In this document: one piece after another, positions 1 to 18,040 of the stretch
Layout: each line of letters begins with the position of its first letter
Position numbering within the stretch: the first letter of the stretch is position 1
Assembly: GCA_963793865.1 (NCBI GenBank)
Contig: CAWCBP010000001.1
Coordinates: forward strand, 463,457 to 527,456
DNA from: an uncultured delta proteobacterium
GTDB taxonomy: Bacteria; Desulfobacterota; WTBG01
DNA length: 64,000 nucleotides
Reading direction: 5' to 3'
Program-made: the position numbers and the translations under genes
Notes under the pieces: generated by a model
The model's database searches: none
Told to the model about the DNA's origin: nothing
What the model saw: only the letters and a program-made list of their open reading frames with translations

Positions 1-459
1 AGGTACCTCTCGGGTGACGCGACGGCACTGAGCGGCGAGGAGCAGAACGGCTTAAAGCTCTTCATGGATAAAGGGTGCGCCGGCTGTCACGGGGGGATCA
101 ATATGGGAGGAACCGGATATTTTCCCTTCGGGGTGGTCGAGAAGCCGAAGGCGGAGATTACCGCGGGGGATATGGGCCGGTTTAAAGTAACCGGGTCCAA
201 AAGCGATGAGTATGTCTTCAAGTCGCCGTCCTTAAGGAACATAGCGCTTACCGCGCCTTACTTTCATTCGGGCAGGGTATGGAGCCTGCGGGGGGCGGTG
301 GCTATCATGGGGTCGGCGCAGCTCGGCATTTCTCTGTCGGATGGTGACACGGACGCCATCGTGTTGTTTTTAAGGACCGCGACCGGGCGACAGCCGCGAA
401 TAGAGTACCCCATATTGCCGGTGAGCACGGAATCGACGCCTAAACCGAAGCTCGACTGA
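1..459 (+). CDS. Dihaem cytochrome c peroxidase (CCP/MauG family), 3' fragment; 5' end lies outside the window
   Basis: The frame is open from nt 1. It has a CxxCH haem motif (CAGCHGG) and the FKSPSLRN motif typical of bacterial CCP C-terminal haem domains. Confidence 0.8.
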   Translation, partial: RYLSGDATALSGEEQNGLKLFMDKGCAGCHGGINMGGTGYFPFGVVEKPKAEITAGDMGRFKVTGSKSDEYVFKSPSLRNIALTAPYFHSGRVWSLRGAVAIMGSAQLGISLSDGDTDAIVLFLRTATGRQPRIEYPILPVSTESTPKPKLD

Positions 460-568
460 TGTGAACTGCCTGTTTGTCTTGCGTCATCTCACGGCACTGC
501 CCGGGCATTAAGCCGGTTTTCAGATGCTGCCTGTTCTCCTCCCATGGCGCTCAGCGAGGGATGACTGT

Positions 569-1225
569 ATGACTGATGCACGATCGTGCACAACGCTGAA
601 TCCCCAAGCCTGGCCGGTCATACGCGACCGCACGGCGTACCTTGCAAAGCTGGCGGCGGGGCTGGATGTGCTGGACATCGGGTGCACGGGAAGAAAAGGC
701 AGCGGACGGCTGCCCGACTGCGCCAGTACCCTGCACCACGAAATCCGGCCTTTCTGCGCCTCTCTGACGGGGCTCGACATTGATGCCGAGGGCGTTGAAG
801 TCATGAGAAAGGCGGGCTACCATGCGGTATGCGGCGATGTTTCCTCAGCCAGCCTGAAACAGCGATTTGATGTCATCATTGCCGCGGAAGTCATTGAACA
901 CCTGCCCAATCCCGCCATGGCCCTGTGCAATCTGAAAGGGCATCTCAAAAACAGCGGTACGCTGGTTTTAACCACCTGCAATCCATTTTACTACCGCCAG
1001 CAATCACGCATCGTGCGGCACGGCGCCGTTCAGGTCAACGCGGCCCATACCTGCTGGTATGACCCTTTGACGCTGGCGCGGATGTTGCGCAGCGCGGGAT
1101 TTACCGTGGTAAAAGGCGCGTGGATTACACCCGGGAAAAGATGGAACCCGATGACCTTTGCGGCACGGTGGAGAAAATACTGGAACCCCAACTTCCTGGT
1201 TGAAGCAAAGCAGGACGATCAGTGA
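569..1225 (+). CDS. Class I SAM-dependent methyltransferase
   Basis: Motif I VLDIGCTGR, a post-I acidic residue and motif II DVIIAAEVIEHL. Alternative upstream start at 524. Confidence 0.7.
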   Translation: MTDARSCTTLNPQAWPVIRDRTAYLAKLAAGLDVLDIGCTGRKGSGRLPDCASTLHHEIRPFCASLTGLDIDAEGVEVMRKAGYHAVCGDVSSASLKQRFDVIIAAEVIEHLPNPAMALCNLKGHLKNSGTLVLTTCNPFYYRQQSRIVRHGAVQVNAAHTCWYDPLTLARMLRSAGFTVVKGAWITPGKRWNPMTFAARWRKYWNPNFLVEAKQDDQ

Positions 1226-1389
1226 CACGCGGAAATAAAAAAGAGGAAAAAGAGATTGCTTTATCGTCCCGCTCTGACGGGACTCCTCGCAACGATGCGC
1301 TTATTTTTTTTCGCATGCGGTTATTTCCGGGCATACAACGAGAAAACCTTTTATGGGGGGATGCGATATGGCGATGCATAGAGGATCAA

Positions 1390-2752
1390 ATGATGCAGGA
1401 CGACAGGGGCCGGTCCGGTTCGGGCGGTACGAGAAGGGATTTTATTAAAATGTTCGGAGCTGCCGCGGCAGGAAGCGTGGCCGGCCTCCTGCTGCCGAGA
1501 GCGGCGGGGGCAGAGGATTCAACAGCAATCATTGAAGAACCTCCTTTTGCAGGATCCCGGTGATGAGCTGTTTTGGGCGCGGGTGCGCAGGCAATTTGTG
1601 ATCAAGCCCGGGTTGACCTACATGAATACCGGCACCGAAGGCTCCATACCCCGCTTTGTACTGTATCGCATGCAGAACTATTTCCGTGAGTTTGCCGAGA
1701 ACCCCTGGGATGCCATTATAGGAAGCAAGGTTTTCGGTCCGGACATGAAGGATACGCGCATCAGGATGGCCGGTTTTGTGGGTGCAGACGAAGGTGAAAT
1801 CCTGCTTACCCACAACACCACCGAAGGCATGTCGTTCACTGCCAATGGCCTGGAGTTGCAGGAAGGAGATGAGGTGCTGACAACCCTGCATGAGCACTCT
1901 GCGGGACTGGTCTGCTGGGAGATTCTCCGGGAGCGGCGAAAGGTGACCCTGACCCAGATTGAACTTCCCACCCCGGCGGCGGACAAGGATGAAATCGTCG
2001 ATGCCTTCGCCCGGGCAATTACGCCACGCACCCGGGTGATGAGCTTCTGCCATGTCAACTATACCACCGGGCTGCGCATGCCGGTGAAGGAATTGTGCCA
2101 GCTGGCCCGGGATAACGGCATCATCTCGGTGGTTGACGGGGCTCATGCCATAGGTATGCTCAATCTGAATCTGCACGACCTGGGATGTGACTTTTATGCC
2201 ACCTCTCCCCATAAGTGGCTCAATGCCCCTCCCGGAACAGGCGTGCTGTATATACGGAATGGCATGCTCGAGCAGCTCTGGCCCACGGTCACCGAAGTCT
2301 CGCCGCATGCCACCAGCATCAGCGTGCTGCAGGGCAGAGGCCAGCAGTGCACACCGGCATTCGCCTGTCTCAATGACCTCGCTGACTTTCAGGAGTACAC
2401 GATCGGTAAGGATCGTATCCAGAGCCGTATACTGGCATTAAGCTCCTATTTAAAGGAACAAATTAAGGAGGCTTGGAATGCCGATAGCCTTTTTTCACCC
2501 ACCGATGAAACGCTCTCATCGGGGATCGTATCCTTTAATCCCTTTGAGGATCATTTTGATATTGCAAAAGCTAAAATTTACATCCAGTTAAAGGAGAAAT
2601 ACAAGATCGTTATACGGCGGGTTGATTTTAAAAACCGGCTTGCCGACAGCAAGAAAACCCAGGCGATGCGGGTTTCAACGCATATCTTTAACAGCTACCG
2701 GGATATAGATAAACTGATCAGCTCGCTGCAGGTACTCATGGCCGAGATGTAG
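1390..2752 (+). CDS. Tat-signal class V PLP-dependent aminotransferase (cysteine desulfurase / isopenicillin-N epimerase-like), interrupted by an apparent +1 frameshift near 1532-1563
   Basis: Frame 1 (1390-1563) encodes a twin-arginine signal (TRRDFIKMFGAAAAGSVAGLL...AGA). Frame 2 (1532-2752) encodes an aminotransferase class V body (ELFWARVRRQFVIKPGLTYMNTGTEG...HKWLNAPPGTG). Removing the t at 1561 joins the two reading frames. Confidence 0.65.
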
Positions 2753-2979
2753 GATAACCGGCAGAGGCACATTTATGTGCGAATTATTCGCGGCTGAAGC
2801 CGCTCCTAACGGTTATAGGGAAGTGCGTGATGGAGGGCCATGCTCTGTCATGGCCGCATAAATATAGGAAGCGACGGAGCTCGTCCCTCCATCAAATTTG
2901 GTAAACAGTCATGGGGGTAGCCGCAAGCTTTAGCTTGCGATTTTGGACGCAACGGAGTGCGTGCCTCCAAGGCAGGTTG

Positions 2980-3813
2980 CTACGGACGCTGCAGTAATTC
3001 CAAGAGCTGTGTATGAACGTGTCCGTTTGAAAACAGGTAATCGCCCCGCTCAGGCTTCCAGGGATTGCCGCTGAAGTCGCTTACCTTTCCGCCGGCCTCC
3101 TCGACCAGGAGAACGCCGGCGGCCACGTCCCAGGGCTCGATGGCGGTGGTGAAATACGCCTCCCCCCGGCCTGAGGCCACCCACGCCGTTTCCAGTCCGG
3201 CTGAACCGAGCTTGCGGATGTCGGTGACATGGGGATAAACGCTGTGCAGGAGACTCCCCGTCCTTTCCCGGTCTTTGGATCCCCCTTCGCAATAGATGAT
3301 ATAGTTTCGATTGAGATCCCCGATGGTTGAAACCTCAAGCTTCACGCCGTTGAGATAAGCTCCCTTGTTCCTTTCCGCCAGGTAAAGCTCGTTGAGGGCG
3401 GGGGCATGTATAACTCCCAGGGTGAGTTTACCCCGGTGCATGAGCGCAATGCAGACCGAAAAAAAAGGATTGTGATTGGAGAAATTGCCGGTCCCGTCCA
3501 GCGAATCAACGATCCAGAGCCATTCATCACCGGCTTGATGATAGCCGCTTTCCTCAGTCAAAAGGCTGTGCCGGGGATAGGCTTTGCTGATTTCTGCAGT
3601 AATGAGACCATCGACCAGTTTATCGTAGCTGCTGGCCGCCTCTTTTGCGGTATTCCTCAAAAAAATAGAAGCGTGATCACGACGAAAACCTTCCAGCAGG
3701 ATATCCCCCGCCTTCCGCGCCACCTGCACCGTAAAGTCCCGCAACCCTTCAGCCATGTATCGCTCCCTATTGGTCATCATGTGTACGCCATCGCCATTTA
3801 TTAACCTGTTCAT
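2980..3813 (-). CDS. Inositol monophosphatase family protein (SuhB/IMPase-like)
   Basis: WIVDSLDGTGNF and EPWDVAAG motifs. Alternative start near 3780. Confidence 0.8.
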   Translation of the reverse strand: MNRLINGDGVHMMTNRERYMAEGLRDFTVQVARKAGDILLEGFRRDHASIFLRNTAKEAASSYDKLVDGLITAEISKAYPRHSLLTEESGYHQAGDEWLWIVDSLDGTGNFSNHNPFFSVCIALMHRGKLTLGVIHAPALNELYLAERNKGAYLNGVKLEVSTIGDLNRNYIIYCEGGSKDRERTGSLLHSVYPHVTDIRKLGSAGLETAWVASGRGEAYFTTAIEPWDVAAGVLLVEEAGGKVSDFSGNPWKPERGDYLFSNGHVHTQLLELLQRP

Positions 3814-3974
3814 CTTAGCACACTCGATTCAGAGGGGGAAGTCTCCCGGGGTCTTTTTTTAATTAAGCAATTACGAGCTGCGTGCCGATACGAATAAAAG
3901 ATTTATTTATATTAGATGGACCGGTTATCGCACGTAGCATTCCCTTGTTGTCTAAGCCGTAAGGAAACGTTCTT

Positions 3975-5165
3975 ATGGATCTGATCAGCATCATTGAGGA
4001 TCAGCAGAAGCAGGCCCTGCCTGATGAGCCCGGATCGTTGTTTGACAGGATTCGCCGCCTGGAGGAATCCAACAGCGCCCTCATTGCCATCCAGAACAAG
4101 CTGGAGCGGTTAAGCCAGTTTCATGCAGAGATGGTGCTGTCCTATGACATTTATGACATCCTGGAGAAGGGGCTGGCCAAGTTTCAGGAGCTGGTCAGGA
4201 CCAAGGTATGCTCCGTCTTCCTGGTGCACGAACACGGCTACCAGTTTGTCAATAAATCCATACCCGCGGAACTCGCGCCGGCCGCTCAAAAGGAGGTGGA
4301 GGCGCAGATACAATCAGGGACATTCGGCAGGATCATGAGCAGCGGCATGCCGGCCTGTGTGCCTGCCGATAACTTCAGAGGTGAGAAAAACCAGCCTCTC
4401 AGCGTTTTAATGGCCCCGCTGATCCACCGGGGGAAAACCATCGGCGTGGTGGTGATTGTCTTTGAGGAGGACCGGGATTTTATACGGCAGCAAACCCTGA
4501 AGCTCCTCTATATTCTGGCGGGTTTTTTTTCCATGGCCATACAAAACGCACACCTGTTCGGCGATCTGAAAAGCAGCTACTTTGATACCATCAGGGGCGT
4601 GGCCAATTCGGTTGAAGCGCGGGATCCCTATACCAAGGGTCACTCGCGCAGGGTGGCGCGCATCGCCAGGTCAATGGCGGAATCGCTTAACTGGACAAAG
4701 GAGGCGCTTGAGTTTATCGACTGGGGCGGCATGCTCCACGATGTGGGGAAAATAGGCATCCACGATAAAATACTCAATAAGAAAGCACGGCTTGAAGATA
4801 ACGAGTTTGAAACCATGAAAATGCATCCGGTCATAGGAGCCCAGATAGTGGAGGGGATCGGCTTTTTGAAACCCGTGGTTCCCTACATTTTAGAGCACCA
4901 CGAGCGGTATAACGGGAACGGTTATCCCCGCGGCCTTGTGGGTGATCAGATTTCGATTGAAGGACGACTGCTGGCGGTGGCCGACGTGTTTGATGCCATG
5001 ACCACCGAAAGGCCCTATCAGAAGGCATTTGAACCTGAAGTGGCTTTCAATAAAATTGTGGCCAATAAAAAAATTCTTTTTGATCCTCTCATCGTCCAGG
5101 CATTTGAACATGTCTGGCAAACGGGAAAAATTCAGGAGATTCTTGATGCCTTCAAAAAGGCCTGA
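3975..5165 (+). CDS. GAF domain-containing HD-GYP phosphodiesterase (cyclic-di-GMP)
   Basis: C-terminal HD motif HDVGKIGI with HHERYNGNGYPRGL (HD-GYP). N-terminal GAF-like region. Confidence 0.8.
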   Translation: MDLISIIEDQQKQALPDEPGSLFDRIRRLEESNSALIAIQNKLERLSQFHAEMVLSYDIYDILEKGLAKFQELVRTKVCSVFLVHEHGYQFVNKSIPAELAPAAQKEVEAQIQSGTFGRIMSSGMPACVPADNFRGEKNQPLSVLMAPLIHRGKTIGVVVIVFEEDRDFIRQQTLKLLYILAGFFSMAIQNAHLFGDLKSSYFDTIRGVANSVEARDPYTKGHSRRVARIARSMAESLNWTKEALEFIDWGGMLHDVGKIGIHDKILNKKARLEDNEFETMKMHPVIGAQIVEGIGFLKPVVPYILEHHERYNGNGYPRGLVGDQISIEGRLLAVADVFDAMTTERPYQKAFEPEVAFNKIVANKKILFDPLIVQAFEHVWQTGKIQEILDAFKKA

Positions 5166-5553
5166 AGCCGGTTGCCGGTAATTCCTTCCCATTCCTTCTG
5201 CTCCATCCCCATCCAAAACTTTTCTCTTTTCTCCCGCCGGGTAATCGAGTATACAAATACAAGGGTACAGGGTTTAGGGTAAGGAGGAGTTGACAGTTGC
5301 CAGTTCACAGTTTGCAGGGTAAAGCTGCGTTGCAATTGTGCTGACCTCCTTCTCATTTCTTCGTATCACCCAAGTGATTTACATTGACATAAAGGTCATT
5401 CTGTGGCTTGACCACAGCATCCAGATGCAATTTTTCATTGGATCCTGCGATCAAGTCGCAGGATGACTTAAAAGGCATTTTGAGACAGTAGTATTAAGAT
5501 AATCCTCTCATCATTTCTCATTTGGAACATTTGATATTTGAATTTTGGGTTTG

Positions 5554-5577
5554 TTTCGGATTTCGTGCTTCGGATTT
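5554..5577. repeat. Copy of the AAATCCGAAGCACGAAATCC repeat (reverse orientation) in the 5' intergenic region of the AlkP-family gene
   Basis: TTTCGGATTTCGTGCTTCGGATTT is the reverse complement of 62100-62119 plus flank. Confidence 0.5.
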
Positions 5578-5631
5578 GATTCACAATCCAGTATCCAGCA
5601 TCATGTTTTTATAATCCCAGGGAATCATCGC

Positions 5632-6957
5632 ATGAACTGCGCAACGTCCCCCACGAAGCTCCTGCTTCTTGCCTTTGACGGCCTTTCATTTCCCCTGCTC
5701 AAACGGCTGGTTGATGCCGGTGACCTGCCGTGCTTCAAGGCGCTGATGGACAGGGGATCCTGGGGGCTGTTCGAACCGTTTGTCCCCTCCAACTCCGCCG
5801 TCATATGGACAAGCGTCATGACCGGCATGCATCCCCGCAAGCACGGAATCGACAGCTTCATCTATTACACGGCAGGGAAAAGGGTCTTCAGGAAATCCTC
5901 GGTAAAAAAGCTGCTGAAGCTCGGCTTCCGGCCGCTCTTCAACCTGCTGAAGCGCAAGGGATACGTGCGCGATCATCCATTCACGCTGAGCATGGTCGGG
6001 GAAAAAATGCTCTGGGAGCTTTTTGCAGAGGGCGGCCGCACGGCAGGAGTCATCAACTGGTGGCACAGCTGGCCCGCTCCCGCGCTTCCCGGCTTTATTG
6101 TATCAGACCGGGTGCATTACTGGAGATCGCGTGAAAGAAGCCATGCGCCGGGTGAATTAGCGGATGCATGCCTCATGTATCCTCCCCGGCTGGCTGACGA
6201 AATCATGAGCAGGCTGGTCAATCCTTATGAGATACCCGATGAGGCCTATCAGCAGATCATGAAGATTGATGCGGCAACCGTCGGGAGCATGAAAGATGCC
6301 CACTATGAGCGCCATCAGCTCATGAGCGAATTCAAGTATCTCTACGCCATGGATGAATCGGTGAAGAGCATGGCGCTCTATTGCATCGATCGTCTGTCCC
6401 AGCCGGATTTGCTGGCCCTGTATTTCAGGGGAATCGACATTATTTCTCACTGCGCTTTGAAATATGCCCCCCACAACAGGGATGACTCGGTCAGCGATGA
6501 AGATGCGTCCCGGTTTGGCGACACGGTCAATGCCTATTACCGTCACACCGATGCGCTGCTCGGGGAAATTGTGCGCGCCGTATCCAGGGATACGGCCGTT
6601 TTGGTTGTGTCCGATCACGGATTTGATAAAGAGCCTGACGGACGCTTCGGTCACAGGAAAACAGCGCCGCCCGGGACATTCATTGCCGCGGGAAAACCAT
6701 TTGCGCGGGGCGCCCTCCCGCGGCAGGTGAAACTCTATGATGTTGCGCCCACCCTGCTGTACCTGTCCGGCCTGCCCTGCTCACGGGATATGGAAGGCAG
6801 GGTGATTACCGAGTGTATCGACCGGGAATTTCAGCGCGACCATCCGGTCTGTTACATCGATAGCTATGGTCCACCCGTCCGGCATCACGCCCCGATTGTT
6901 TCTGAGAGTGAAGAGCTCATCAAGGAGCGCCTCCGAGCCCTCGGCTACATAGATTAA
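5632..6957 (+). CDS. Alkaline phosphatase superfamily / nucleotide pyrophosphatase-phosphodiesterase family protein
   Basis: LLLAFDGLSFPL near the N-terminus, the VVSDHGF metal-site motif, and AlkP-like size. The ORF track starts at 5545; the ATG at 5632 is preferred. Confidence 0.65.
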   Translation: MNCATSPTKLLLLAFDGLSFPLLKRLVDAGDLPCFKALMDRGSWGLFEPFVPSNSAVIWTSVMTGMHPRKHGIDSFIYYTAGKRVFRKSSVKKLLKLGFRPLFNLLKRKGYVRDHPFTLSMVGEKMLWELFAEGGRTAGVINWWHSWPAPALPGFIVSDRVHYWRSRERSHAPGELADACLMYPPRLADEIMSRLVNPYEIPDEAYQQIMKIDAATVGSMKDAHYERHQLMSEFKYLYAMDESVKSMALYCIDRLSQPDLLALYFRGIDIISHCALKYAPHNRDDSVSDEDASRFGDTVNAYYRHTDALLGEIVRAVSRDTAVLVVSDHGFDKEPDGRFGHRKTAPPGTFIAAGKPFARGALPRQVKLYDVAPTLLYLSGLPCSRDMEGRVITECIDREFQRDHPVCYIDSYGPPVRHHAPIVSESEELIKERLRALGYID

Positions 6958-7002
6958 CTCCCCGCAACATCACCTAACCAATAGAAATACTTTAAAATTA
7001 TC

Positions 7003-7034
7003 TTGACACTTCTATATGTGGTGGTGTATTTAAT
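7003..7034 (+). promoter_or_regulatory. Sigma-70-like promoter (TTGACA, 18-nt spacer, TATTTA) upstream of a small ORF
   Basis: A perfect -35 hexamer TTGACA at 7003-7008 with an AT-rich -10 region about 18 nt downstream. Confidence 0.4.
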
Positions 7035-7142
7035 TACTAATGCCATATATTGATTGATGCAGGCAGAGGTTCGACTCAGAGCGGCCGGTTGCATCAATGC
7101 CTGAATGGCGCGCCACTCGGGAAGGGAAGGGGGTGAAAAGTA

Positions 7143-7211
7143 ATGGCAACAAAGAAAAAGGCAGCAAAAAAGAAGGCAACCAAGACAGCTTGTTGTTCAA
7201 AGAAGAAGTAA
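7143..7211 (+). CDS. Candidate small ORF encoding a 22-aa lysine-rich peptide MATKKKAAKKKATKTACCSKKK
   Basis: Strong SD (GGGAAGGGAAGGGGGTGAAAAG) 3-8 nt before the ATG. Upstream promoter. Downstream hairpin with T-run terminator at 7243-7286. Confidence 0.4.
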   Translation: MATKKKAAKKKATKTACCSKKK

Positions 7212-7242
7212 GCTTGTGATCAATCGAATTTGTTGTACGAGG

Positions 7243-7286
7243 TCTCCCAAAGAATGAAGCCAGTTTTTTGGGAGATCGCCTTTTTA
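7243..7286 (+). terminator. Rho-independent terminator (stem TCTCCCAAA/TTTGGGAGA then TCGCCTTTTT)
   Basis: A 9-bp GC-containing stem followed by T5, located 30 nt after the small-ORF stop. Confidence 0.55.
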
Positions 7287-7396
7287 ATGAGTAACCTGCT
7301 ATAAACTATGCAGATTTTTGTTGACAAATAAACTATTTGCAATAGATTAGCCGTAATTCGTTTAGCTCAACTCTCTTTTGTTGCGGGAAACAGCTT

Positions 7397-8056
7397 ATGG
7401 ATGCACTTGCTGCCATTAATGATCGTTCAAGCATTCGGTGCTTTACCGACCAGCCTGTGGGGCGGGAGACCATTGAGCAGTTGCTGGATTGCGCGCGCAA
7501 GGCGCCGTCCGCCTCCAACCAGCAACCCTGGAATTTTGTGGTGGTGAGCGGGCACAGCAGGGACACGTTGGCCGGGGCCCTGCTTGCGGCACAGAAAAAC
7601 CGGGGCAAACATTATGATCCATCCCGGAGCAGGTCCCTGCCTGATGCCTACGTGGAGAGAAGCAGGAAGCTCATCAAGAGCTTACGGTCACATCTCGAGG
7701 CGATCAGCCTGCAGGCTGTGCCGTTCCTGGAGGAGGGGAGCTGCTCGTTTTACGGGGCGCCTGTTCTCATCCTGGTGACCATGGACAAGGCGCATATACC
7801 GTCTCAATTGATAGATATCGGATGCGCGGTGCAAAATCTCTGCCTTGCCGCACACGCCCGGGGACTGGGTACCTGCATTATTGCACTCATACTCATGTTC
7901 GGAGATGTGATACGGGAACAGCTTTCCCTGGGGGAAGAGGTGGAGGCGGTGGTCGGCATCGCCCTCGGGTACCCGGATCGCGGGTCAGCGATCAACCGGT
8001 TCCGGGCCCCGAAAGAAGAGCTGAGTTCCGTGACGCGGTGGATAGGCTTCGATTAG
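7397..8056 (+). CDS. Nitroreductase family protein (NAD(P)H-flavin oxidoreductase)
   Basis: N-terminal SIRCFTDQPV...SASNQQPWNFVVV typical of the nitroreductase fold. Confidence 0.8.
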   Translation: MDALAAINDRSSIRCFTDQPVGRETIEQLLDCARKAPSASNQQPWNFVVVSGHSRDTLAGALLAAQKNRGKHYDPSRSRSLPDAYVERSRKLIKSLRSHLEAISLQAVPFLEEGSCSFYGAPVLILVTMDKAHIPSQLIDIGCAVQNLCLAAHARGLGTCIIALILMFGDVIREQLSLGEEVEAVVGIALGYPDRGSAINRFRAPKEELSSVTRWIGFD

Positions 8057-8187
8057 GGGATGCCCGCGCCCGGATTGGGGCTTGCAGCATCGTGCAACCG
8101 CATGCCATGCCGCGGGTAATGCAATATCGCCGGAGAAGCTGCCGGCTTGATAAACAAAGGGATCTAACCTGATGAGAGGAGGAGGTA

Positions 8188-8466
8188 ATGCTTAAATCAG
8201 ATCTGATTGAAAAAGTTGCCAGGGAAATGAACATGAACAATGACATTGCCCAGCTGGTGATCAACAACGTATTCGATGCCATGACAGAGGCGCTCAGCAG
8301 GGGGGAGAGCATTGAGATACGAGGCTTCGGCAGCTTCAGCGTGAGGACGTATGCTTCCCGGGAGGGCAGAAACCCCAAATCAGGGGCGAAAGTCGCTGTC
8401 CCGCCCCGAAAGAAACCTTTCTTCAAGGTGGGCAAAGAGTTGAAGAACAGGGTTAATACTTTGTAA
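8188..8466 (+). CDS. Integration host factor / HU family DNA-binding protein (IHF subunit-like)
   Basis: GFGSFSVRTYASREGRNPKSG arm motif. 92 aa. Confidence 0.85.
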   Translation: MLKSDLIEKVAREMNMNNDIAQLVINNVFDAMTEALSRGESIEIRGFGSFSVRTYASREGRNPKSGAKVAVPPRKKPFFKVGKELKNRVNTL

Positions 8467-8602
8467 CTTCCCGCCGAAACACATTTTGTGTTACAGTAAT
8501 GGGAGGGGTACCATGAACCTTTTTATTATCCTCCATGCCTTCCGGACATTGTAACTTTCCTGCATCCGCTCCTTACAATACATCCGGACAAAGCTATCTT
8601 TT

Positions 8603-9538
8603 ATGCAGAGTGAAGACATGACCGGGCAGGCCGGCGGTCTGCCATCCGGCTTTGATGCTGCGGCACGGGATGAAGGTAAGCACGGGACAAAGCCCCGCAC
8701 AAAACCCTCCATTGCTGTCAACGTGGTTCTGTTTATCTGTACGGTCGGGACGACCGTTCTGGCCGGCGCGCTCCAGCAGGGAGTCAATCCCTTGGAGGAC
8801 CCGTCGCAGCTGATCAAGGGGCTGCCGTTTTCGGCTGCGCTGTTGTTCATCCTGCTGGCCCATGAAATGGGGCATTTCCTCACCTCAAAATATTACCGCA
8901 TTGATGCCAGCCTTCCCTATTTTATACCGGCGCCCACGTTCATAGGGACCTTCGGCGCGTTCATCAAGATGCGCTCCCCGATGCTGAATAAGCGTGTTCT
9001 GCTTGATGTCGGGGCCAATGGTCCGCTGGCCGGGCTGCTGGTGACCATTCCGGTTCTGGCGGTCGGCCTGAAGCTCTCTGAAGTGAAAGCGCTCACAACC
9101 CCTCTGGAGGGGGGCATGGCGCTGGGATCATCTCTCATCCTTTATTTCATGACCACGGTTATTCTGGGCCCCCTGCCCGATACGCACCAGGTGATTCTCC
9201 ATCCCCTGGGCTTTGCGGGCTGGATCGGATTGCTGGTCACATCCATGAATCTCATACCGGTGGGGCAGCTCGACGGCGGGCACATTGCCTACGCGGTCTT
9301 CGGCAGGAAAACGAGGCACATATCAACGGCAGTCCTCATCTGTCTGCTCGGCCTTGGCATCTGGGCGTCGCAGATGTGGCTGATGTGGGCTCTCATCCTT
9401 TTTGTCCTGCTGGGCATACGGCATCCCGCGCCGCTTGATTATGATGAGCCGCTGGACCGCAGGCGCAGAATGCTGGGCCTGGGCATGCTGGTGATTTTTG
9501 TGCTGACCTTTGTGCCGGTGCCGTTCGGAAATCTGTAA
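8603..9538 (+). CDS. Site-2 protease family (M50) membrane metalloprotease
   Basis: HEMGHF zinc-binding HExxH within hydrophobic segments. Multi-TM. Confidence 0.75.
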   Translation: MQSEDMTGQAGGLPSGFDAAARDEGKHGTKPRTKPSIAVNVVLFICTVGTTVLAGALQQGVNPLEDPSQLIKGLPFSAALLFILLAHEMGHFLTSKYYRIDASLPYFIPAPTFIGTFGAFIKMRSPMLNKRVLLDVGANGPLAGLLVTIPVLAVGLKLSEVKALTTPLEGGMALGSSLILYFMTTVILGPLPDTHQVILHPLGFAGWIGLLVTSMNLIPVGQLDGGHIAYAVFGRKTRHISTAVLICLLGLGIWASQMWLMWALILFVLLGIRHPAPLDYDEPLDRRRRMLGLGMLVIFVLTFVPVPFGNL

Positions 9539-9544
9539 GGCTTG

Positions 9545-11029
9545 ATGCATATGGGCAACAACCGGGGAAAGACAACCGGCATCATCATCAGGACCGTCAT
9601 CATGCTGCTGTGGCTGGGCATGATGGGAATACTGGTGCAAAGAACCTGCTTTGACGGGGGGAGCAGCCATGCCCGGGCGGGCGGCACCGCAAGCCAGCTG
9701 CGGCCGCGGGAAGAGTGGATGGGTATTTACTGGGGCGGGGAAAAGGTCGGCTATTCCGTTTCAAAGATAAAAAAGTCGCGCGACGGATATCAGATGGATG
9801 AGCAGGCGGTCATGGATCTCACGGTCATGGGGACCTCCCAAAGGATAGACACCGAGCTGACCTCCCGGGTGGATAATGCCTTTACCCTGCGGTCATTTGA
9901 CTTCCGGATGATGTCGAACCTTTTCAGCTTTAAGGCGGCGGGGACTGTGGAGGGCAACCGGCTGCAGCTGGAGCTGGAGTCGGGGGCAAGCACGAAGCGC
10001 ACTGCCATCGAGCTGGAAGAGGCGCCCTGCCTTGCCGGCACGATCAAGCCGCTTATGCTTTCCGAGGGACTGGAGGTGGGGAAAAGGCTGCGCTACAGCA
10101 TTTTTGATCCCGCCACCATGGCCAGCGCCCCGGTGGAGATCGTGGTTGAGGGGAAGGAGGACCTGGAAATTCGCGGAAGGACCATTGCGTGCTACCGTCT
10201 CGGGAGCACATTTAAAGGCATCACGCTGCGCTCCTGGATAGATGAGGAGGGCAATACCATGCGCGAAGAGAGTCCGATGGGCCTGATGCTGATCCGGGAA
10301 AGCAAGGTTGACGCCCTGACCGCCAACTGGCGCGGCACAAAAAAGGATTTTCTGACGGCCAGCGCCATCCCGGTGGAAAGGCCCATCACCGCCGACTATC
10401 CGGCCTATCTCAAGGTGCGCCTGCTGAACTGCGACCTGCAGGGATTTGACCTTTCCTCACAACGGCAGGCGCTGCGCGCCGATACGCTGGAAATTACACG
10501 GGAGGATCTTTCGGACCTGCCTCCCTGCATCATCCCCGTCGGCGGAAAGGAAATGCAGGAATATCTCAGCCCCACCCCTTTTATTCAGAGTGCCGACCCC
10601 GCACTTCGCGCGCAGGCCGGTGAAATTATCGGTGATGAGCGCGACGCCCTCAAGGCGGCTGCGCTCCTTCATGGCTGGGTATACCGCACGATTGAAAAGA
10701 GGCCGGCCCTGAGCATTCCCAGCGCGCTGGATGTGTTGCGATTGAAGGTGGGCGACTGTAATGAACATGCCACGCTCTTCGTTGCCCTTTGTCGCGCCGC
10801 GGGCATACCCTGCAAGCTCTGCGCGGGAATCGTGTATAATCAGGGCAGCTTCTATTACCATGCCTGGTCCGAGTTTTACGCGGGGCGCTGGGTGAGCGCG
10901 GACCCGACCCTGGACCAGCTTCCGGCGGACGCGACCCACATCCGGCTGATTGAAGGGGGGCTGGACCGGCAGCTTGAAATCATCCGGCTGATCGGAGCGC
11001 TGAGGGTGGAGGTGGTGGAATACCGATGA
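9545..11029 (+). CDS. Transglutaminase-like domain membrane protein
   Basis: N-terminal TM segment. C-terminal transglutaminase core GDCNEHATLFVALCRAAGIPCKLCAGIVY...HAWSEFY...SADPT (Cys-His-Asp). Confidence 0.75.
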   Translation: MHMGNNRGKTTGIIIRTVIMLLWLGMMGILVQRTCFDGGSSHARAGGTASQLRPREEWMGIYWGGEKVGYSVSKIKKSRDGYQMDEQAVMDLTVMGTSQRIDTELTSRVDNAFTLRSFDFRMMSNLFSFKAAGTVEGNRLQLELESGASTKRTAIELEEAPCLAGTIKPLMLSEGLEVGKRLRYSIFDPATMASAPVEIVVEGKEDLEIRGRTIACYRLGSTFKGITLRSWIDEEGNTMREESPMGLMLIRESKVDALTANWRGTKKDFLTASAIPVERPITADYPAYLKVRLLNCDLQGFDLSSQRQALRADTLEITREDLSDLPPCIIPVGGKEMQEYLSPTPFIQSADPALRAQAGEIIGDERDALKAAALLHGWVYRTIEKRPALSIPSALDVLRLKVGDCNEHATLFVALCRAAGIPCKLCAGIVYNQGSFYYHAWSEFYAGRWVSADPTLDQLPADATHIRLIEGGLDRQLEIIRLIGALRVEVVEYR

Positions 11030-11856
11030 TGCAGCTGCGCGAGCTTTCAAAGCGGTTCGGCAATCTCATGGCTGTCGACGGCGTTTCCCTGGAAGTGAAA
11101 CGGGGGGAGATTTTCGGTTTCCTGGGCCCGAACGGGGCGGGGAAGACCACCACCATCAAAATGCTGGCGGGCCTGATCAAGCCCAGCAGCGGGCGGGTGA
11201 TCATTGACGGGTGGGACCTGGAGGAGCGCCCGCGGGAGGCGAAAAAGGCGGTGGGGTTCATTCCCGACCGGCCGTTTCTCTATGAAAAGCTGACCGCACA
11301 TGAATTCCTCCGTTTTCTTGCAGGGCTTTACGGCTGTCCCGCGGATGGAACCGATGAGCGCATGACATCGCTTTTGCGGCTGTTCGGCATTGAGGAGTGG
11401 AAGGACGAGCTGATTGAAAGTTTTTCTCACGGCATGAAGCAGCGGCTGGTGATGGTATCCGCGTTTTTGCATCAGCCCAAGATAATCATTGTGGATGAGC
11501 CCATGGTGGGGCTGGATCCGGCCGGCGCCCGGCTGGTAAAAGAGGTGTTCCGAAGCTTTGCCTCACGCGGAGGGGCGGTCTTCATGTCCACCCATACCCT
11601 GGAAGTGGCGGAGGAGGTCTGTGACCGCATTGCCATCATTCACGGGGGCCGGATTGTGGCGTCGGGTACGATCGATGAGCTCAGGCAAAAGGCGGGCAGC
11701 GAGGGGGTTAAGCTGGAAACCCTCTTTTTCAAGCTTACCGGGGGAGAGCAAGAGCGCCGCCTGGCGGAGTCGATGCAGTTCAATGACGGGTTGTTGAAAA
11801 AGTGTTTTCTTCAGGCTCTTCAAAAGCCCCTCCCCCTTGAGCCACAAATCAGATGA
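11026..11856 (+). CDS. ABC transporter ATP-binding protein
   Basis: Walker A GPNGAGKTT, signature SHGMKQRL and Walker B IIIVDEP. Its start overlaps the upstream stop. Confidence 0.9.
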   Translation: MMQLRELSKRFGNLMAVDGVSLEVKRGEIFGFLGPNGAGKTTTIKMLAGLIKPSSGRVIIDGWDLEERPREAKKAVGFIPDRPFLYEKLTAHEFLRFLAGLYGCPADGTDERMTSLLRLFGIEEWKDELIESFSHGMKQRLVMVSAFLHQPKIIIVDEPMVGLDPAGARLVKEVFRSFASRGGAVFMSTHTLEVAEEVCDRIAIIHGGRIVASGTIDELRQKAGSEGVKLETLFFKLTGGEQERRLAESMQFNDGLLKKCFLQALQKPLPLEPQIR

Positions 11857-13589
11857 GTGTTTTTCAACAACCTGCTAAGGAGATCACGGGCATGGGTGAG
11901 ACCGTGCTGCTGCTGGCGGCAAAAGTACGTTCATACAGGAACAGCTCAAGGGATGCGGGTAGCAGTAAGCTGGTTCGCCTGATGGTCTTTTCTGCCGCTG
12001 CGCTGCTCTTCTGGGCCGGGACCTTTTACATATTTTACCGCGTGCTGGGCTACTTTGCCGGCATCGAGGTCATCGGGACCCTGCTCGCCGCCAAGCTGCT
12101 TTCCATGGTCTTTCTCACCTGCTTCTCGCTGCTGCTCTTCAGCAATACCATCACCGCGCTTTCCACCTATTTTTTGTCGGACGACCTGCAGCTGCTCAAC
12201 GCGGTGCCTGTTTCCGCCACCGGCCTCTATGCCGGCCGGTTTCTTGAAACCGTGATCAGCAGCTCCTGGACGGTGCTTTTCTTCAGCTCGCCCGTCTTCC
12301 TCGCCTACGGCCTGGTGTACCATGCCTCGTTTGCTTATTATCTTGCCCTGGCAGGGGTGATCATCCCCTTTGTTCTCATCCCTGCCGCGGCAGCAACCGT
12401 GCTCATCCTGCTTCTGGTCTCCCTCGTTCCCGCGCGCCGCCTCAAGGAAATCATCGTGCTTACCTTCATCCTGATTGTGGTGGGGGTGTTTCTCTTCATC
12501 CGCTTCCTTCAGCCCGAGCGGCTGGTGGACCCGGAGAGCTTTTACCTGGTGATGGATTATATCAGCAATTTACGAACACCCGCCTCTCCCTTTTTTCCCA
12601 GCCAGTGGGCTGCAGACGCCCTGGCCCCCTTTCTTTTCGATTCCGCGCGGTGGTCGCAGTTCCCGGTCATGCTGCTCTGGAGCACCGGTCTGGCCTTCGC
12701 GGTCATGGGCGAATGGGTCTTCAAGCGGCGCTACGTTGACGCCTGGTCAAAGGCCCAGGAGGCCAGAAGCGCCCGCTGGTCCCGGTCAACACCGCTCAAC
12801 CGCTCTCTTGATTGGCTGCTGAAGCCCCTATCCCCGGCGGTCCGCGTCATCATTCTGAAGGATCTGAAGCTTTTTCTGCGGGACACCAACCAGTGGACGC
12901 AGCTCTTCCTGATCGGGGCGCTGATCGTTATCTACGTGTATAATTTCAGCGTCCTTCCCATGGAGCGGTCGCCGCTTCCCACATTCTATCTGCAGAACGT
13001 CATTGCCTTTCTTAATCTGGGGCTGGCGGCCTTTGTGATTGCCGCCATAGCCGGGCGGTTTACCTTCCCCGGCGTGAGCATCGAGGGGAAGGCCTTCTGG
13101 ATTCTCAAGTCATCGCCCCTGGAGCTGCGCACGGTGCTCTGGAGCAAGTTCTGGGTCAATTTCCTCTTCCTGCTGGTTCCGGCGGAACTGTTGATCATCA
13201 CCACCAACCTGCTGATGAACGCGGCCCCTTTCATGCAGTGGCTCTCGGTGCTGAGCATTGCGGGAATGACCTTCGGCATTACCAGCCTGGGCATGGGGTG
13301 CGGCGCCCGCTTCCCCCGCTTCAACGCGGAAAACGTATCGCAGGTGGCCACGGGCTTTGGCGGCATGTTTTACATGATCGTGGCGGTGCTGTTTATCGGG
13401 CTGATGGTGGTGCTGGAGGCGCGCCCGGTCTATCTCTTTTTCATGGCGCAATTCAGGGGCCTGCCCCTGACCGGGTGGGAGCTGGCCGAGATTGCCGGGC
13501 TGCTCGCGGCCGCCGTGCTGCTGAATGCGCTTGTGGCCATTCTCCCCATGCGCCTGGGGCTTAAGCAACTCGCAAGCCTGGAAGTGTAG
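11853..13589 (+). CDS. ABC transporter permease (large multi-TM, ABC-2-like)
   Basis: 578 aa with more than 10 hydrophobic segments. Start overlaps the stop of the ATPase. Confidence 0.6.
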   Translation: MSVFQQPAKEITGMGETVLLLAAKVRSYRNSSRDAGSSKLVRLMVFSAAALLFWAGTFYIFYRVLGYFAGIEVIGTLLAAKLLSMVFLTCFSLLLFSNTITALSTYFLSDDLQLLNAVPVSATGLYAGRFLETVISSSWTVLFFSSPVFLAYGLVYHASFAYYLALAGVIIPFVLIPAAAATVLILLLVSLVPARRLKEIIVLTFILIVVGVFLFIRFLQPERLVDPESFYLVMDYISNLRTPASPFFPSQWAADALAPFLFDSARWSQFPVMLLWSTGLAFAVMGEWVFKRRYVDAWSKAQEARSARWSRSTPLNRSLDWLLKPLSPAVRVIILKDLKLFLRDTNQWTQLFLIGALIVIYVYNFSVLPMERSPLPTFYLQNVIAFLNLGLAAFVIAAIAGRFTFPGVSIEGKAFWILKSSPLELRTVLWSKFWVNFLFLLVPAELLIITTNLLMNAAPFMQWLSVLSIAGMTFGITSLGMGCGARFPRFNAENVSQVATGFGGMFYMIVAVLFIGLMVVLEARPVYLFFMAQFRGLPLTGWELAEIAGLLAAAVLLNALVAILPMRLGLKQLASLEV

Positions 13590-13924
13590 CAGGCTGTTGA
13601 AAAACACCCATCCCCTGCGTTACACGCTCCTCCTTCGTCACTGCAGCGTACTTGTATGTACGCCTCATTCCTCAGGATTTCGCGTGCCTTGCATCTGGAT
13701 GTTTTTGATCAGCCTGCTGAAAATACTTTTTCAATAACCTGCTAGGCGGCGGAGACAGCCGTTGTTTAGGCGGCAGGATCGGAACTTTCCGGTTGGCTTT
13801 GCTGCGCCACTGTTTACAATCAAGAAACTATGTGTTACACAGATAGCGGATGCCCCATGAGGAAAAGAGTGCACAAAGCCTGTTGAGCCGCATGAGGGCA
13901 TATGATTGAAAGGAGGTCAGCCGC

Positions 13925-14524
13925 ATGAAAGGTTCCGTGATCAGAAGTAATTGCAGGTTGTTCCTGATACTTTTTTTAAGCACACTTTTTACGGGGGCTA
14001 CGGTTATGGCGGAGGAAGCAAAACAGCGCATACTGCTTGATTTTGAACAATCGGGTGACGCCGCCAACTGGTCCGTCATCAACGATGTGGTCATGGGTGG
14101 GGTTTCAAACAGCAGCTTTACCGTGCAGAAGCCGGGAACCGCTGTTTTCTCCGGTGCGGTCTCATTGGAAAACAATGGCGGCTTTGCCTCGGCAAATATG
14201 AAACCGGCACAATTCGATGTGAGCGGGTTTGACGGCATCAGATTCCGGGTTAAAGGTGATGGGAAAAACTATAAGATTACCCTGAAAAATGACGGCGCCT
14301 TCAATGGCTTTTCCTACCGGTTTGAATTCGGCACTAAAAACGGCGAATGGCTCACCATTGATGCCCCCTTTTCAGCATTCGTTCCCAAATTCATGGGGCA
14401 AACCACCAGCGCACCGCCGGTGGACAGGGCAAAGATAAAAACCTTCGGCTTTTTAATAGCGGACAAGCAGGATGGGCCGTTCCGCCTTGAGATTGACTGG
14501 ATTGGCGCCTATAAGAAGGGGTAA
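13925..14524 (+). CDS. CIA30 (complex I intermediate-associated protein 30) family protein, secreted
   Basis: Signal peptide. A beta-rich region with the pattern VMGGVS...F.G......NGGFAS....FDVSGFDGI.F.VKGDG..YK, as in bacterial CIA30 homologues. Confidence 0.55.
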   Translation: MKGSVIRSNCRLFLILFLSTLFTGATVMAEEAKQRILLDFEQSGDAANWSVINDVVMGGVSNSSFTVQKPGTAVFSGAVSLENNGGFASANMKPAQFDVSGFDGIRFRVKGDGKNYKITLKNDGAFNGFSYRFEFGTKNGEWLTIDAPFSAFVPKFMGQTTSAPPVDRAKIKTFGFLIADKQDGPFRLEIDWIGAYKKG

Positions 14525-14554
14525 TCAGTGCACGTGCACGGGGAGGTATGATTG

Positions 14555-14884
14555 ATGAAAAAGGGTGGAATAGTCGTGATGGCAATGGTTATGGTTTTCT
14601 GCTGTGCAGCTGTTACCCGCGGGCAAAATCCCGCGGCCGTGTCCGAAGGCGAAGTCCTCTTCAAGCAGTACTGCCAGGCGTGCCATCCCGGCGGGAAGAA
14701 CGTGATGAATCCGGCAAAGACACTGTACGCGCAGGATCTGAAAAAAAATAAGATAGAAACCCCGGAAGCGATTGTAAAAATGATCCGCAAGGCGCCGCCG
14801 GGGATGACCGCCTTCGATGAAAAGGTTATATCGGATAAGGATGCGGACGCAATCGCCCTCTATATCCTGCAGACCTTTAAATAG
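14555..14884 (+). CDS. Class I c-type cytochrome (c6/c553-like), secreted
   Basis: Signal peptide, CQACH haem motif and a downstream Met ligand (PGM). About 110 aa. Confidence 0.8.
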   Translation: MKKGGIVVMAMVMVFCCAAVTRGQNPAAVSEGEVLFKQYCQACHPGGKNVMNPAKTLYAQDLKKNKIETPEAIVKMIRKAPPGMTAFDEKVISDKDADAIALYILQTFK

Positions 14885-14892
14885 CTGCAGTG

Positions 14893-15192
14893 TCATTGAG
14901 GCGGGGCGTAACCTTCCACGATCACCGCGCGGGAAGTGGCCGCCTCTTCCCTTAACGGGGCAATCTTACGGTACTCCGGCGAGGCAAAGCAGTCCCTTGC
15001 CTGCTGAACCGTTTCGAACCGGATTATCACCAGCCGTTTCGGAAGCCACTCTCCCGAGAGACGGGTTACCCTGCCTCCCCGCACCAGATACCTTCCCCCT
15101 GCCTTTTCAATAATTGACGTGGCCTGCGCGACATACCGGGCATACAGCTCCTGATTGTGGACGTCGATGTCAAGTATGAGATAGGCGGACAT
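14893..15192 (-). CDS. DUF1330 domain-containing protein
   Basis: MSAYLILDIDVHNQELYARY... matches the DUF1330 N-terminal pattern. 99 aa. Confidence 0.6.
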   Translation of the reverse strand: MSAYLILDIDVHNQELYARYVAQATSIIEKAGGRYLVRGGRVTRLSGEWLPKRLVIIRFETVQQARDCFASPEYRKIAPLREEAATSRAVIVEGYAPPQ

Positions 15193-15290
15193 GGAGCGCT
15201 CCTCGTGACTTTTTTGGATAATCCGTGAAGCCGCTTGGGCGGGCAGGGATTCCTCAGATCTGCCCCGCGTTCAACAGTTGGGCGGAAACA

Positions 15291-16520: not shown

Positions 16521-16584
16521 GGGCTTTCTCCTCAGGCAGGCTTGTAGGCGCAAATCCGGAATTCGAAGCGAAATTCGAAAAAAT

Positions 16585-16735
16585 GACAAAGTTCAAATAA
16601 CAAAATCCAAATGAAAAGTGACAAAGCTCAAATGACAAAAAGTTCAAAACAAACCCGTTCGCTTGGCTGGTTTGATTATTGGTCATTTGTTTTTTTTCAT
16701 TGTTTTGAACTTTGCATTTTGCACTTTGACATTCA
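16585..16735. repeat. AT-rich imperfect long inverted repeat (about 45-nt arms) between the serpin and the NlpC/P60 gene
   Basis: The left arm ...GTGACAAAGCTCAAATGACAAAAAGTTCAAAACAAA and the right arm TTTGTTTTTTTTCATTGTTTTGAACTTTGCATTTTGCACTTTGAC are near reverse complements. Local GC is about 30%, against about 60% for the window. Confidence 0.5.
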
Positions 16736-16745
16736 CGAGCAGCCA

Positions 16746-17684: not shown

Positions 17685-17707
17685 CGTCGCGCCCCGGCAC
17701 GAACAGG

Positions 17708-18040
17708 CTATATGCCGATATTTGAGAGCATCACGCATATGCGGTTAACCGTGCCTACCAGGGTTGGGTGGGACGTCTCAAATCCCTTTACCGACGAGGC
17801 CAGGCCTTCCAGGGATACCTTTACCAGCTGGGGGTTCTTGTCCTGCCGAAGGGTCTCATGGGTGGAGACGGTGGTGAATCCCAGAATGCTTTCCGCCTCT
17901 TCACGACATGTTTTGGCCAGCTCTTCGATCTCGGTTTTCAGGGTTCCAAGCAGCGTGAGCAGCTCTGCCCGGTTGTCCTGCTTCATCGAATCGAGCTGTT
18001 TGACCTTTTCTTCTATGGCGGAAATAGTTTTTTTAATCAT
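17708..18040 (-). CDS. DUF4404 family protein (coiled-coil)
   Basis: C-terminal ...FETSHPTLVGTVNRICVMLSNIGI matches the DUF4404 C-terminal pattern (HP.L...I..I...L..MGI). Confidence 0.5.
   Translation of the reverse strand: MIKKTISAIEEKVKQLDSMKQDNRAELLTLLGTLKTEIEELAKTCREEAESILGFTTVSTHETLRQDKNPQLVKVSLEGLASSVKGFETSHPTLVGTVNRICVMLSNIGI

Follow-up and report, generated by a model that had tools for sequence, protein, structure and literature searches.

The window analysed here, a stretch of 64,000 nucleotides from contig CAWCBP010000001.1 of an uncultured delta proteobacterium, contains a short open reading frame (sORF) that encodes a 22-residue, lysine-rich peptide, MATKKKAAKKKATKTACCSKKK, and lies in an intergenic gap between two larger genes. 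The gap, delimited by reading of the sequence and from the list of open reading frames (ORFs), is bounded upstream by a type-I phosphodiesterase/nucleotide-pyrophosphatase-family gene (5545-6957) and downstream by a nitroreductase-family gene (7397-8056), both assigned by Pfam, the latter to the general PF00881 family. Within it, a unit spanning 7003-7286 comprises a -35 box, a structured leader of ~100 nt, a strong Shine-Dalgarno (SD) sequence, the 22-codon ORF and an intrinsic terminator. The ORF runs on the forward strand from an ATG at 7143 to a TAA at 7209-7211 (7143-7211 in all); a preliminary description of this DNA had correctly located it, and the 23 codons given there count the stop codon in addition to the 22 sense codons.

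Conservation of the unit and selection on the reading frame

The unit recurs in 13 loci and as 10 distinct sequences from independent assemblies, and all relatives are metagenome-derived. One Logan contig (L001) is 100% identical to the window over the unit; because of this identical contig and the recurrence of the unit in independent assemblies, the risk of a draft-indel artefact, raised in the preliminary description, is removed. Scanning GTDB species genomes with the nitroreductase returned five orthologous loci from uncultured Thermodesulfobacteriota, three of which carry the sORF in the same place: L002 (nitroreductase identity 90%; peptide MATKKKAAKKKATKKACCSKKK), L003 (75%; MATKKKATKKKATKKACCSKKK) and L005, the most distant relative (61%; MATKKKATKKKVQKKGCCSK). 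A degenerate DNA pattern applied to JGI metagenomes added L082, L084, L089, L093, L094, L112, L121, L126 and L127, with further peptide variants that include ...ACCAKKK and MATKKKATKKKAATKKGCCAKKK. This pattern demanded MA-x-KKK-x2-KKK and TGYTGY within 12-18 nt and, like the scan of GTDB genomes, was run once and is pattern-biased; a broader form, KKK-x2-KKK-x5-CC, had given 48 matches on viral contigs, nearly all of them poly-A noise, and was tightened before the metagenomes were scanned. In these scans the sORF family is confined to one Thermodesulfobacteriota clade, and tblastn of the flanking proteins recovers the same order at every sORF locus: HD-GYP, phosphodiesterase, sORF, nitroreductase, HU, M50 peptidase and transglutaminase-like genes. 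In the remaining two orthologous loci, L004 and L006 (nitroreductase identity 62% and 59%), the gene block is kept and no sORF lies in the gap, as judged from the ~12 kb inspected around each orthologue; a covariance model of the leader likewise has no match in either.

Identity along the alignment of the ten distinct units is ~0.9 in the promoter block, 0.96 in a box at the 5' end of the leader, 0.8-0.98 over the stretch that begins with the leader's 3' half and includes the SD, and ~0.9 in the ORF. Directly past the stop codon, in the spacer that leads to the terminator (7212-7240, forward strand), it falls to 0.26-0.59, and it climbs again at the terminator stem; this spacer carries indels, is 29-45 nt long across relatives and is the least conserved segment of the unit. 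Within the ORF, 6, 4 and 19 columns are variable at codon positions 1, 2 and 3, respectively (23 columns each), a third-position excess with a binomial P of 4e-4. Over all pairs of the eight distinct ORFs, codon differences divide into 154 synonymous and 63 non-synonymous, and between L094 and L126 there are 11 synonymous differences and 1 non-synonymous difference in 22 codons. Codons that start with AA, the lysine codons, are AAA or AAG in 85/85 cases, and the Ala, Thr, Ser and Cys codons vary synonymously among relatives. Every relative with the unit preserves the frame of the sORF, and no other frame, sense or antisense, is open in all of them; a 40-aa ORF at 7097-7219 and an antisense 56-aa ORF were rejected on this ground.

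These patterns suggest translation of the ORF and purifying selection on its product at the amino-acid level, and we regard the locus as very probably a real protein-coding gene. The stand-alone small gene for a poly-lysine peptide that the preliminary description proposed is supported by the kept frame, the synonymous pattern and the loss of conservation past the stop, and the check that it suggested, conservation of the frame versus that of the RNA in relatives, finds the frame conserved.

Composition of the peptide family

Ten of the 22 residues of the window peptide are lysines (45%), a figure that rises to 11-12 lysines (50-55%) in its relatives, and arginine is lacking. The lysine blocks of the window peptide are spaced as KKK-A-x-KKK-A-T-K. 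Family peptides, 20-23 residues long, follow the scheme MATKKKA-x-KKK-x-x-K-K-[A/G]-C-C-[S/A]-K(KK), are built only of K, A, T, S, G, V, Q and C, and have a net charge of ~+10 to +11, with acidic, aromatic and arginine residues absent. The invariant residues are M1, A2, T3, K4-6, A7, K9-11, K14, C17, C18 and K20; C17 and C18 have small residues on either side in every family member. A terminal CC motif had been described for the window peptide, and the CC is indeed present, at residues 17-18, where it is followed by SKKK. Residue 15 is Thr in the window copy and Lys in all others, and the window copy appears slightly atypical for the family. The peptide contains no hydrophobic run, signal peptide, amphipathic segment or leader/core architecture.

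Database comparisons of the peptide gave no match in Pfam and NCBIfam at E <= 10 or among PDB chains, searched with the single sequence and with a profile, at E <= 10. Ten peptide variants had 0 exact matches among ~15 billion predicted proteins, and full-text literature searches on the peptide strings themselves, on small proteins rich in lysine, on bacterial peptides resembling protamines and on lysine-codon leaders turned up no account of such genes. At the RNA level, the unit had no relevant match in Rfam 15 over 6800-7500 at E <= 10, where only a chance match to Entero_CRE appeared, and the whole window at Rfam gathering thresholds yielded one tRNA and nothing else.

Expression signals and leader structure

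The -35 box TTGACA (7003-7008, forward strand), read in the sequence, is invariant as CTTGAC in 10/10 aligned relatives. A candidate -10 box, TATTTA (7027-7032, forward strand), lies 18 nt past it; its TAT is invariant and the remainder variable, the box reading TATAAG, TATAAA or TATATA in relatives, where position 6 is never T. For want of a T at position 6 of the -10 box, the sORF promoter goes uncalled by the scan tool, both in the window and in L002 and L003. The promoter of the preliminary description is only partly confirmed: its consensus TTGACA stands, present and invariant, and the call was too confident as regards the -10 box. The TATTTA of the window differs from the TATAAG/TATAAA of its closest relatives (L121, L002 and L093). 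We infer a transcription start near 7039-7041. The spacer between the boxes is as well conserved as the hexamers (identity ~0.9 across species) and holds an imperfect dyad, ACACTTCTATATGTGGTGGTGT (7006-7027, forward strand), whose consensus, ACACTTCTATATATGGTAGTGT, is palindromic at 18/22 positions; the window copy is so at 13/22 by manual count. The dyad is a possible operator, and a motif search found no second copy of it in the 64-kb window. A sigma-54 reading of the leader TGGCAC was dropped by eye for want of a -12 GC element.

The SD sequence GGGGGTGA (7129-7136, forward strand) lies 6 nt before the ATG, is preceded by the purine tract GGGAAGGGAAG and is invariant in 10/10 aligned sequences. 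At -17.3 kcal/mol, its predicted duplex with the 3' tail of 16S rRNA is the second strongest for the window's 2327 ATG triplets. Only an internal Met of an FtsH-like gene does better, and no long ORF has a candidate start that reaches this value (best -16.1, median -7.65), in agreement with the exceptional strength noted before. Searches of the window and 43 loci for the promoter dyad, for the SD tract and for the leader turned up nothing beyond the known instances. At the other end of the unit, the scan tool calls an intrinsic terminator on the forward strand, with a 15-pair stem-loop at 7241-7277 and a T5 tract at 7281-7285, and also calls the L002 copy; the clean rho-independent terminator of the preliminary description is confirmed by this call. 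The terminator stem is kept in all relatives and shows compensatory changes at three pairs in the consensus fold.

Four elements make up the predicted structure of the leader on the forward strand. The conserved 5'-terminal box (7041-7051), within GCCATATATTGATTG (7042-7056), is predicted to pair with 7139-7148, start codon included, when the window, L002 and L003 sequences are folded to minimum energy. Next comes hairpin P1 (7053-7098), supported by folds and alignment, with a variable apex and a 10-bp basal stem (7053-7062/7089-7098) that contains and extends the 8-bp stem recognised earlier (7054-7061/7090-7097). Two pairs of the basal stem show compensatory changes (AU to CG, split between five and four sequences, and GC to UG); the apex varies in sequence and length by species, and the hairpin is still present in most minimum-energy folds, those of L082 and L005 excepted. 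A mini-hairpin, GCC-TGAAT-GGC (7099-7109), follows, with compensatory change at two of its three pairs in one sequence. Finally, an anti-SD-like segment, CGCCACTC (CGCC-A-CUC; 7111-7118), is predicted to pair with the SD (7129-7135) in the consensus fold.

Support for these elements in the alignment is uneven in kind. Over the leader as a whole, 89% of cells are paired, versus 35-58% in controls slid by 1-3 columns, and the entire unit folds better than shuffled sequences (z = -3.5). The helix between the 5' box and the AUG has 88.8% of its cells paired and shows no covariation; in the anti-SD helix the paired fraction is 93.5%, with the segment either invariant or tolerant of G-U pairs, covariation is likewise lacking and the helix is absent from L005. 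Gating of translation by the leader is plausible on these structural predictions.

A candidate nucleic-acid-binding polycation

A small nucleic-acid-binding peptide was among the candidates of the preliminary description, and by analogy it is kept as the best-fitting one. Our preferred reading, to which we assign a probability of roughly 0.4, is that the peptide is a soluble DNA- or rRNA-binding polycation that dimerises through its Cys pair, with the leader exerting gating or feedback on its translation. The promoter-like block would drive a monocistronic mRNA of ~245 nt that ends at the strong intrinsic terminator, and expression would be high, given that the SD is near-perfect, the ORF opens with AUG-GCA, its first codons are rich in A and each end of the mRNA carries a hairpin. 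Translation would be gated by the leader, the anti-SD-like segment covering the SD and the 5' end covering the AUG, and the trigger could be either a condition or the peptide itself bound to its own mRNA. Acting in trans, the peptide would settle on nucleic acid, either in the nucleoid, as H1-like and HU tails do, or on rRNA, as do bS22, eL41 and Thx. Disulfide- or metal-mediated dimerisation through the Cys pair could then convert a monovalent binder into a bridging one, in the manner of the cysteines of protamines.

We favour nucleic-acid binding because of three observations: MAxKKKxxKKK tails on other proteins, micro-ORFs that lie beside rpmB, and the precedent of bS22-type peptides. Among longer metagenome proteins that start with MAxKKKxxKKK, all classifiable ones bear it as a tail on a nucleic-acid-binding fold. 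The metagenome scan returned HU-family proteins with this N-terminal tail in L064 (1551-1943), L065 (1209-1577, minus strand) and L122 (5668-6135, minus strand), a SWIB-domain protein in L079 (567-878, minus strand) and uS11 in L132 (761-1156, minus strand); the protein of L103 has a weak HC2 match. In L064, L065 and L122, an identical MAxKKKxAKKK motif precedes the HU fold, and H1-like tails in general (HU extensions, Hc1/Hc2, AlgP-type repeats) share the Lys/Ala composition of the sORF product, with KKK blocks split by A, T or V. The sORF product differs from these tails in being a free-standing 22-mer with two cysteines and a promoter, leader and terminator of its own; similarity of such low complexity does not justify a claim of common descent, and the peptide has no profile match to Pfam HC2, Hc1 or Bac_DNA_binding.

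A second line of comparison is with small ribosomal proteins. bS22, with its analogues eL41 and mS38, is a precedent for unannotated peptides of 25-35 residues, about 60% basic, that proved to be ribosomal (PMC10618245). Like the sORF, the genes of bS22, bL37, Thx and eL41 are tiny, are missed by annotation and encode very short basic products, the known ones having 24-35 residues, 50-60% of them basic, and being highly expressed (PMC10618245), and the likeness extends to Cys-free micro-ORFs of other lineages, which lie beside the ribosomal gene rpmB. In contrast to bS22, bL37 and Thx, with which it shares no sequence match in NCBIfam, Pfam or PDB, the window peptide is Lys-only and carries a vicinal Cys pair. 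The sORF is found in the window and in relatives as far as L005, and not in the syntenic slot of L004 and L006. Protamines, too, are short polycations whose cysteines could cross-link, an analogy drawn from established knowledge in which cross-linking of the present peptide is hypothetical; they are Arg-rich, longer and eukaryotic, and no homology is implied. The peptide is thus assigned to no known family, its sequence having given no membership among the small basic ribosomal proteins or the H1-like and HU tails. Among small basic bacterial proteins it is set apart by its Lys-only charge, its vicinal Cys pair, a dedicated mini-operon whose leader is structured, and its apparent restriction to a single clade.

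Several points weigh against a nucleic-acid-binding polycation under leader control. The transcript, its translation and the peptide are predictions from sequence, and the promoter, with its non-canonical -10 box, is the weakest element of the unit. The helices predicted to mask the SD and the AUG are conserved without covariation and absent from L005. The lack of the sORF at this slot in L004 and L006, which keep the gene block, indicates that it is dispensable or has been relocated, which would be unusual for a core ribosomal or nucleoid component. Moreover, the low-complexity likeness to HU tails is no proof of homology, the lack of arginine sets the peptide apart from known small ribosomal proteins, and the role given to the Cys pair is purely inferential.

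Gene callers apply a length cut-off that excludes genes of this size. If the product is an abundant nucleic-acid-binding polycation, it would be a new nucleoid or ribosome component in an uncultured anaerobic lineage and, at the same time, a minimal, chemically tractable 22-mer with vicinal thiols for redox- or metal-controlled compaction.

Alternative explanations

The invariant cysteines invite the main rival reading, in our view an unlikely one, in which Cys-Cys is the functional part and the peptide serves as a chaperone or buffer for soft metals (Cu(I), Hg, As(III), Cd), as a persulfide carrier or as a redox sensor, the Lys tract being needed only for solubility, for a lower thiol pKa or for tethering to anionic surfaces. 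Vicinal Cys pairs are soft-metal ligands in MerA, MerT and ArsD, and a dyad in the promoter spacer is typical of the operators of metal and stress regulators of the MerR type; C17/C18 with their small flanking residues in all family members, the conserved 18-nt spacer with its largely palindromic consensus (18/22), and possible distant analogues with longer Cys runs (CSCC, CCSCC, CCCCC, CCCCCC) would all fit. The MerR-type reading, however, rests on a spacer of 18 nt, below the usual 19-20, and no metal-resistance, regulator or sulfur-transfer gene occurs among the 16 flanking genes scanned (64-17738). Two cysteines alone make a weak site, and many micro-ORFs of other lineages are Cys-free, so the Lys tract appears to be the common functional core. 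The locus could instead be a regulatory RNA first, be it a trans-acting small RNA (sRNA), a protein sponge or a dual-function RNA, in which the leader and an A-rich, ARN-like tract matter and the peptide is secondary. AAR repeats fit the distal face of Hfq, which binds an ARN motif, the leader is as conserved as the ORF, with identities of 0.8-0.98 in its 3' half and 0.96 in its 5' box, the unit folds better than its shuffles (z = -3.5), and a short transcript with a U-tailed terminator is common to many sRNAs. An ARN constraint would permit AGN and AAY, yet lysine codons are AAA or AAG in 85/85; synonymous variation in the Ala, Thr, Ser and Cys codons, the kept stop position and the collapse of conservation past it also speak for the peptide, no Rfam family matches even at E <= 10, and the covariance model found no further copy of the leader. 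We consider this explanation quite improbable: the sRNA-only candidate of the preliminary description is contradicted by the coding-type selection, and a dual role may exist.

Two further explanations tie the sORF to its neighbours. Were it a cis-acting, ribosome-dependent attenuator, stalling at Lys or Cys codons would sense the cognate tRNAs and control read-through into the nitroreductase-HU genes. The terminator 30 nt past the stop codon, the runs of single codon families (ten Lys codons grouped in threes, plus a pair of neighbouring Cys codons), of a kind that any polybasic peptide would be expected to show, and the strict conservation of mostly Lys and Cys residues recall the his, trp and phe leaders and the mycobacterial polycysteine sORFs, which are likewise very short, dominated by one or two codon families and closely followed by a terminator, the Cys-codon attenuators providing a precedent and the mycobacterial sORFs a formal analogue only (bioRxiv 10.1101/834739). 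Here, by contrast, the ORF and 3' consensus fold gives the terminator and no competing helix, so that no conserved antiterminator is present; the nitroreductase has its own promoter, found also in the sORF-less L004 and L006; the downstream genes are unrelated to Lys or Cys metabolism; and there are only two Cys codons. An attenuator is therefore very improbable, and the leader-peptide candidate of the preliminary description is contradicted, the attenuator model having been rejected on the missing antiterminator and the independent, conserved downstream promoter. Least of all do we expect a cationic peptide that is exported or acts on membranes, whether as an antimicrobial or like a toxin, or the precursor of a ribosomally synthesised and post-translationally modified peptide (RiPP) matured by the adjoining nitroreductase-family, M50 peptidase or transglutaminase-like enzymes. 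Short poly-cationic peptides can be antimicrobial, and nitroreductase-fold dehydrogenases act on Cys-derived azolines in the pathways of thiazole/oxazole-modified microcins (TOMMs). The peptide nevertheless lacks any signal peptide, hydrophobic or amphipathic segment and leader/core architecture, including the hydrophobic transmembrane segment of type I toxins and membrane small proteins, which leaves the toxin-like, membrane-active candidate unsupported. Pfam finds no YcaO/cyclodehydratase, radical-SAM, MNIO or dedicated exporter gene among the 16 flanking genes (64-17738), the nitroreductase belongs to the general PF00881 family and has its own promoter, and the same neighbours are kept in L004 and L006 without the sORF; the RiPP/TOMM link to the nitroreductase was rejected, as partner enzymes are lacking and the neighbour persists without the sORF.

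Genomic neighbourhood

The 16 flanking genes (64-17738) are of housekeeping type by Pfam and include methyltransferase, aminotransferase, inositol monophosphatase, HD-GYP, ABC transporter, CIA30 and serpin genes. At a distance of 1 kb, the sORF is followed downstream by an HU-family gene, a proximity that may or may not be meaningful, and an M50 peptidase and a transglutaminase-like gene are also among the neighbours; the ABC genes (11026-13589) are part of the block that is kept whether or not the sORF is present. The nitroreductase promoter, TTGACA-16-TAGATT (TTGACAAATAAACTATTTGCAATAGATTA), is called by the promoter scan in the window (7321-7348), in L002 (5925-5952) and in L003 (2677-2704), and by eye it is also present in the sORF-less L004 (~5771-5798) and L006 (~2937-2964). 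It is nearly the same in all relatives, those without the sORF included, and the conservation of its spacer suggests a regulator binding site. In L006, the gap (2660-2770) holds two GC-rich, hairpin-type repeats (ggatccctgctttcgcagggat and tcattcccgcgcaagcgggaatcc) that resemble repetitive extragenic palindromic (REP) elements or miniature inverted-repeat transposable elements (MITEs); in L004, a 2.1-kb insertion with another gene (3857-6000) fills it.

Poly-lysine micro-ORFs in other lineages

In soil metagenomes, ~24 loci carry Cys-free poly-Lys micro-ORFs, exemplified by the 13-codon MAKKKKAAKKKKK with its near-perfect SD, GGAAAGGAGGTGA (L069, ~2035-2085, minus strand); the MAKKKKAAKKKKK loci are L066, L069, L071, L075, L076, L078, L080, L081, L085, L087, L088, L092, L098, L100-L102, L106, L107, L113, L115, L117, L123, L130, L131 and L133. 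In most of them a second tiny basic ORF, MPKRKKAVKKGGKKKATKKGKRK (23 aa) or MAKKKAAKKKKK (12 aa), lies just upstream, and every such micro-ORF is arranged tail-to-tail with a gene that bears an L28-like C-terminal motif, a gene whose identity as L28 (rpmB) was confirmed by Pfam in L069 only (PF00830, E = 1.7e-19). RelA/SpoT is encoded further upstream in L069. These loci look like an unannotated class of poly-lysine mini-genes, and the many Cys-free micro-ORFs found outside the window's clade, frequently in tandem and next to rpmB, suggest a systematic annotation blind spot rather than a lone oddity.

On this basis one may speculate, at low odds as we see it, that ribosomally made poly-lysine micro-peptides of 12-23 residues form a widespread, overlooked class of bacterial polycations. 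Members of such a class may be encoded by dedicated mini-genes with near-perfect SDs, often in tandem and in some phyla fixed beside rpmB. The window peptide would be its thiol-switchable variant, which oxidation or metal binding at Cys-Cys would turn into a cross-linker for nucleoid compaction or ribosome silencing, with its structured leader as a feedback or condition sensor.

Further Cys-free poly-Lys micro-ORFs appear in other lineages (L104, L105, L110, L119 and L124; L068, L096 and L072; L067, L097, L108 and L128). They include 22-23-aa versions, MAAKKKAAKKKVAKKKAAAKKK and MAAKKKAAKKKATKKKGAAKKKK, the shorter MATKKKAKKKKH, MAAKKKAKKKKKK and MAKKKKGKKKK, and MAKKKKAAKKKKR, which has no SD and is directly followed by a terminator. 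The peptide stays the same in these other lineages although GC content and flanking sequence diverge widely, and the copies differ by synonymous changes.

Sequences in which a MAKKKK-x2-KKK head is joined to a longer Cys run (CSCC, CCSCC, CCCCC or CCCCCC) were each found once, on AT-rich contigs: MAKKKKTTKKKSSCSCCR in L095 (1480-1536, plus strand), MAKKKKANKKKKRRCCSCC in L086 (1011-1070, plus strand), MAKKKKSVKKKEECCCCCGH in L091 (minus strand, beside a tRNA-Ile gene) and MAKKKKTVKKKSRCCCCCCK in L134 (4947-5009, plus strand). They may be analogues of the window peptide or chance (TGY)n repeats. L095, L086 and L134 looked archaeal from their ORFs, and in L095 a 7-codon MAKKKKK mini-ORF lies directly upstream of the Cys-run sORF. 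On a viral contig, L047 (IMGVR_UViG_3300009678_000896), a lysine-rich sORF at 6059-6103 (plus strand), MKKKSYSWAVKKSKKKKMGKKKGSKKKCCG, ends in KKKCCG and is the only non-poly-A match of the broad pattern in viral contigs.

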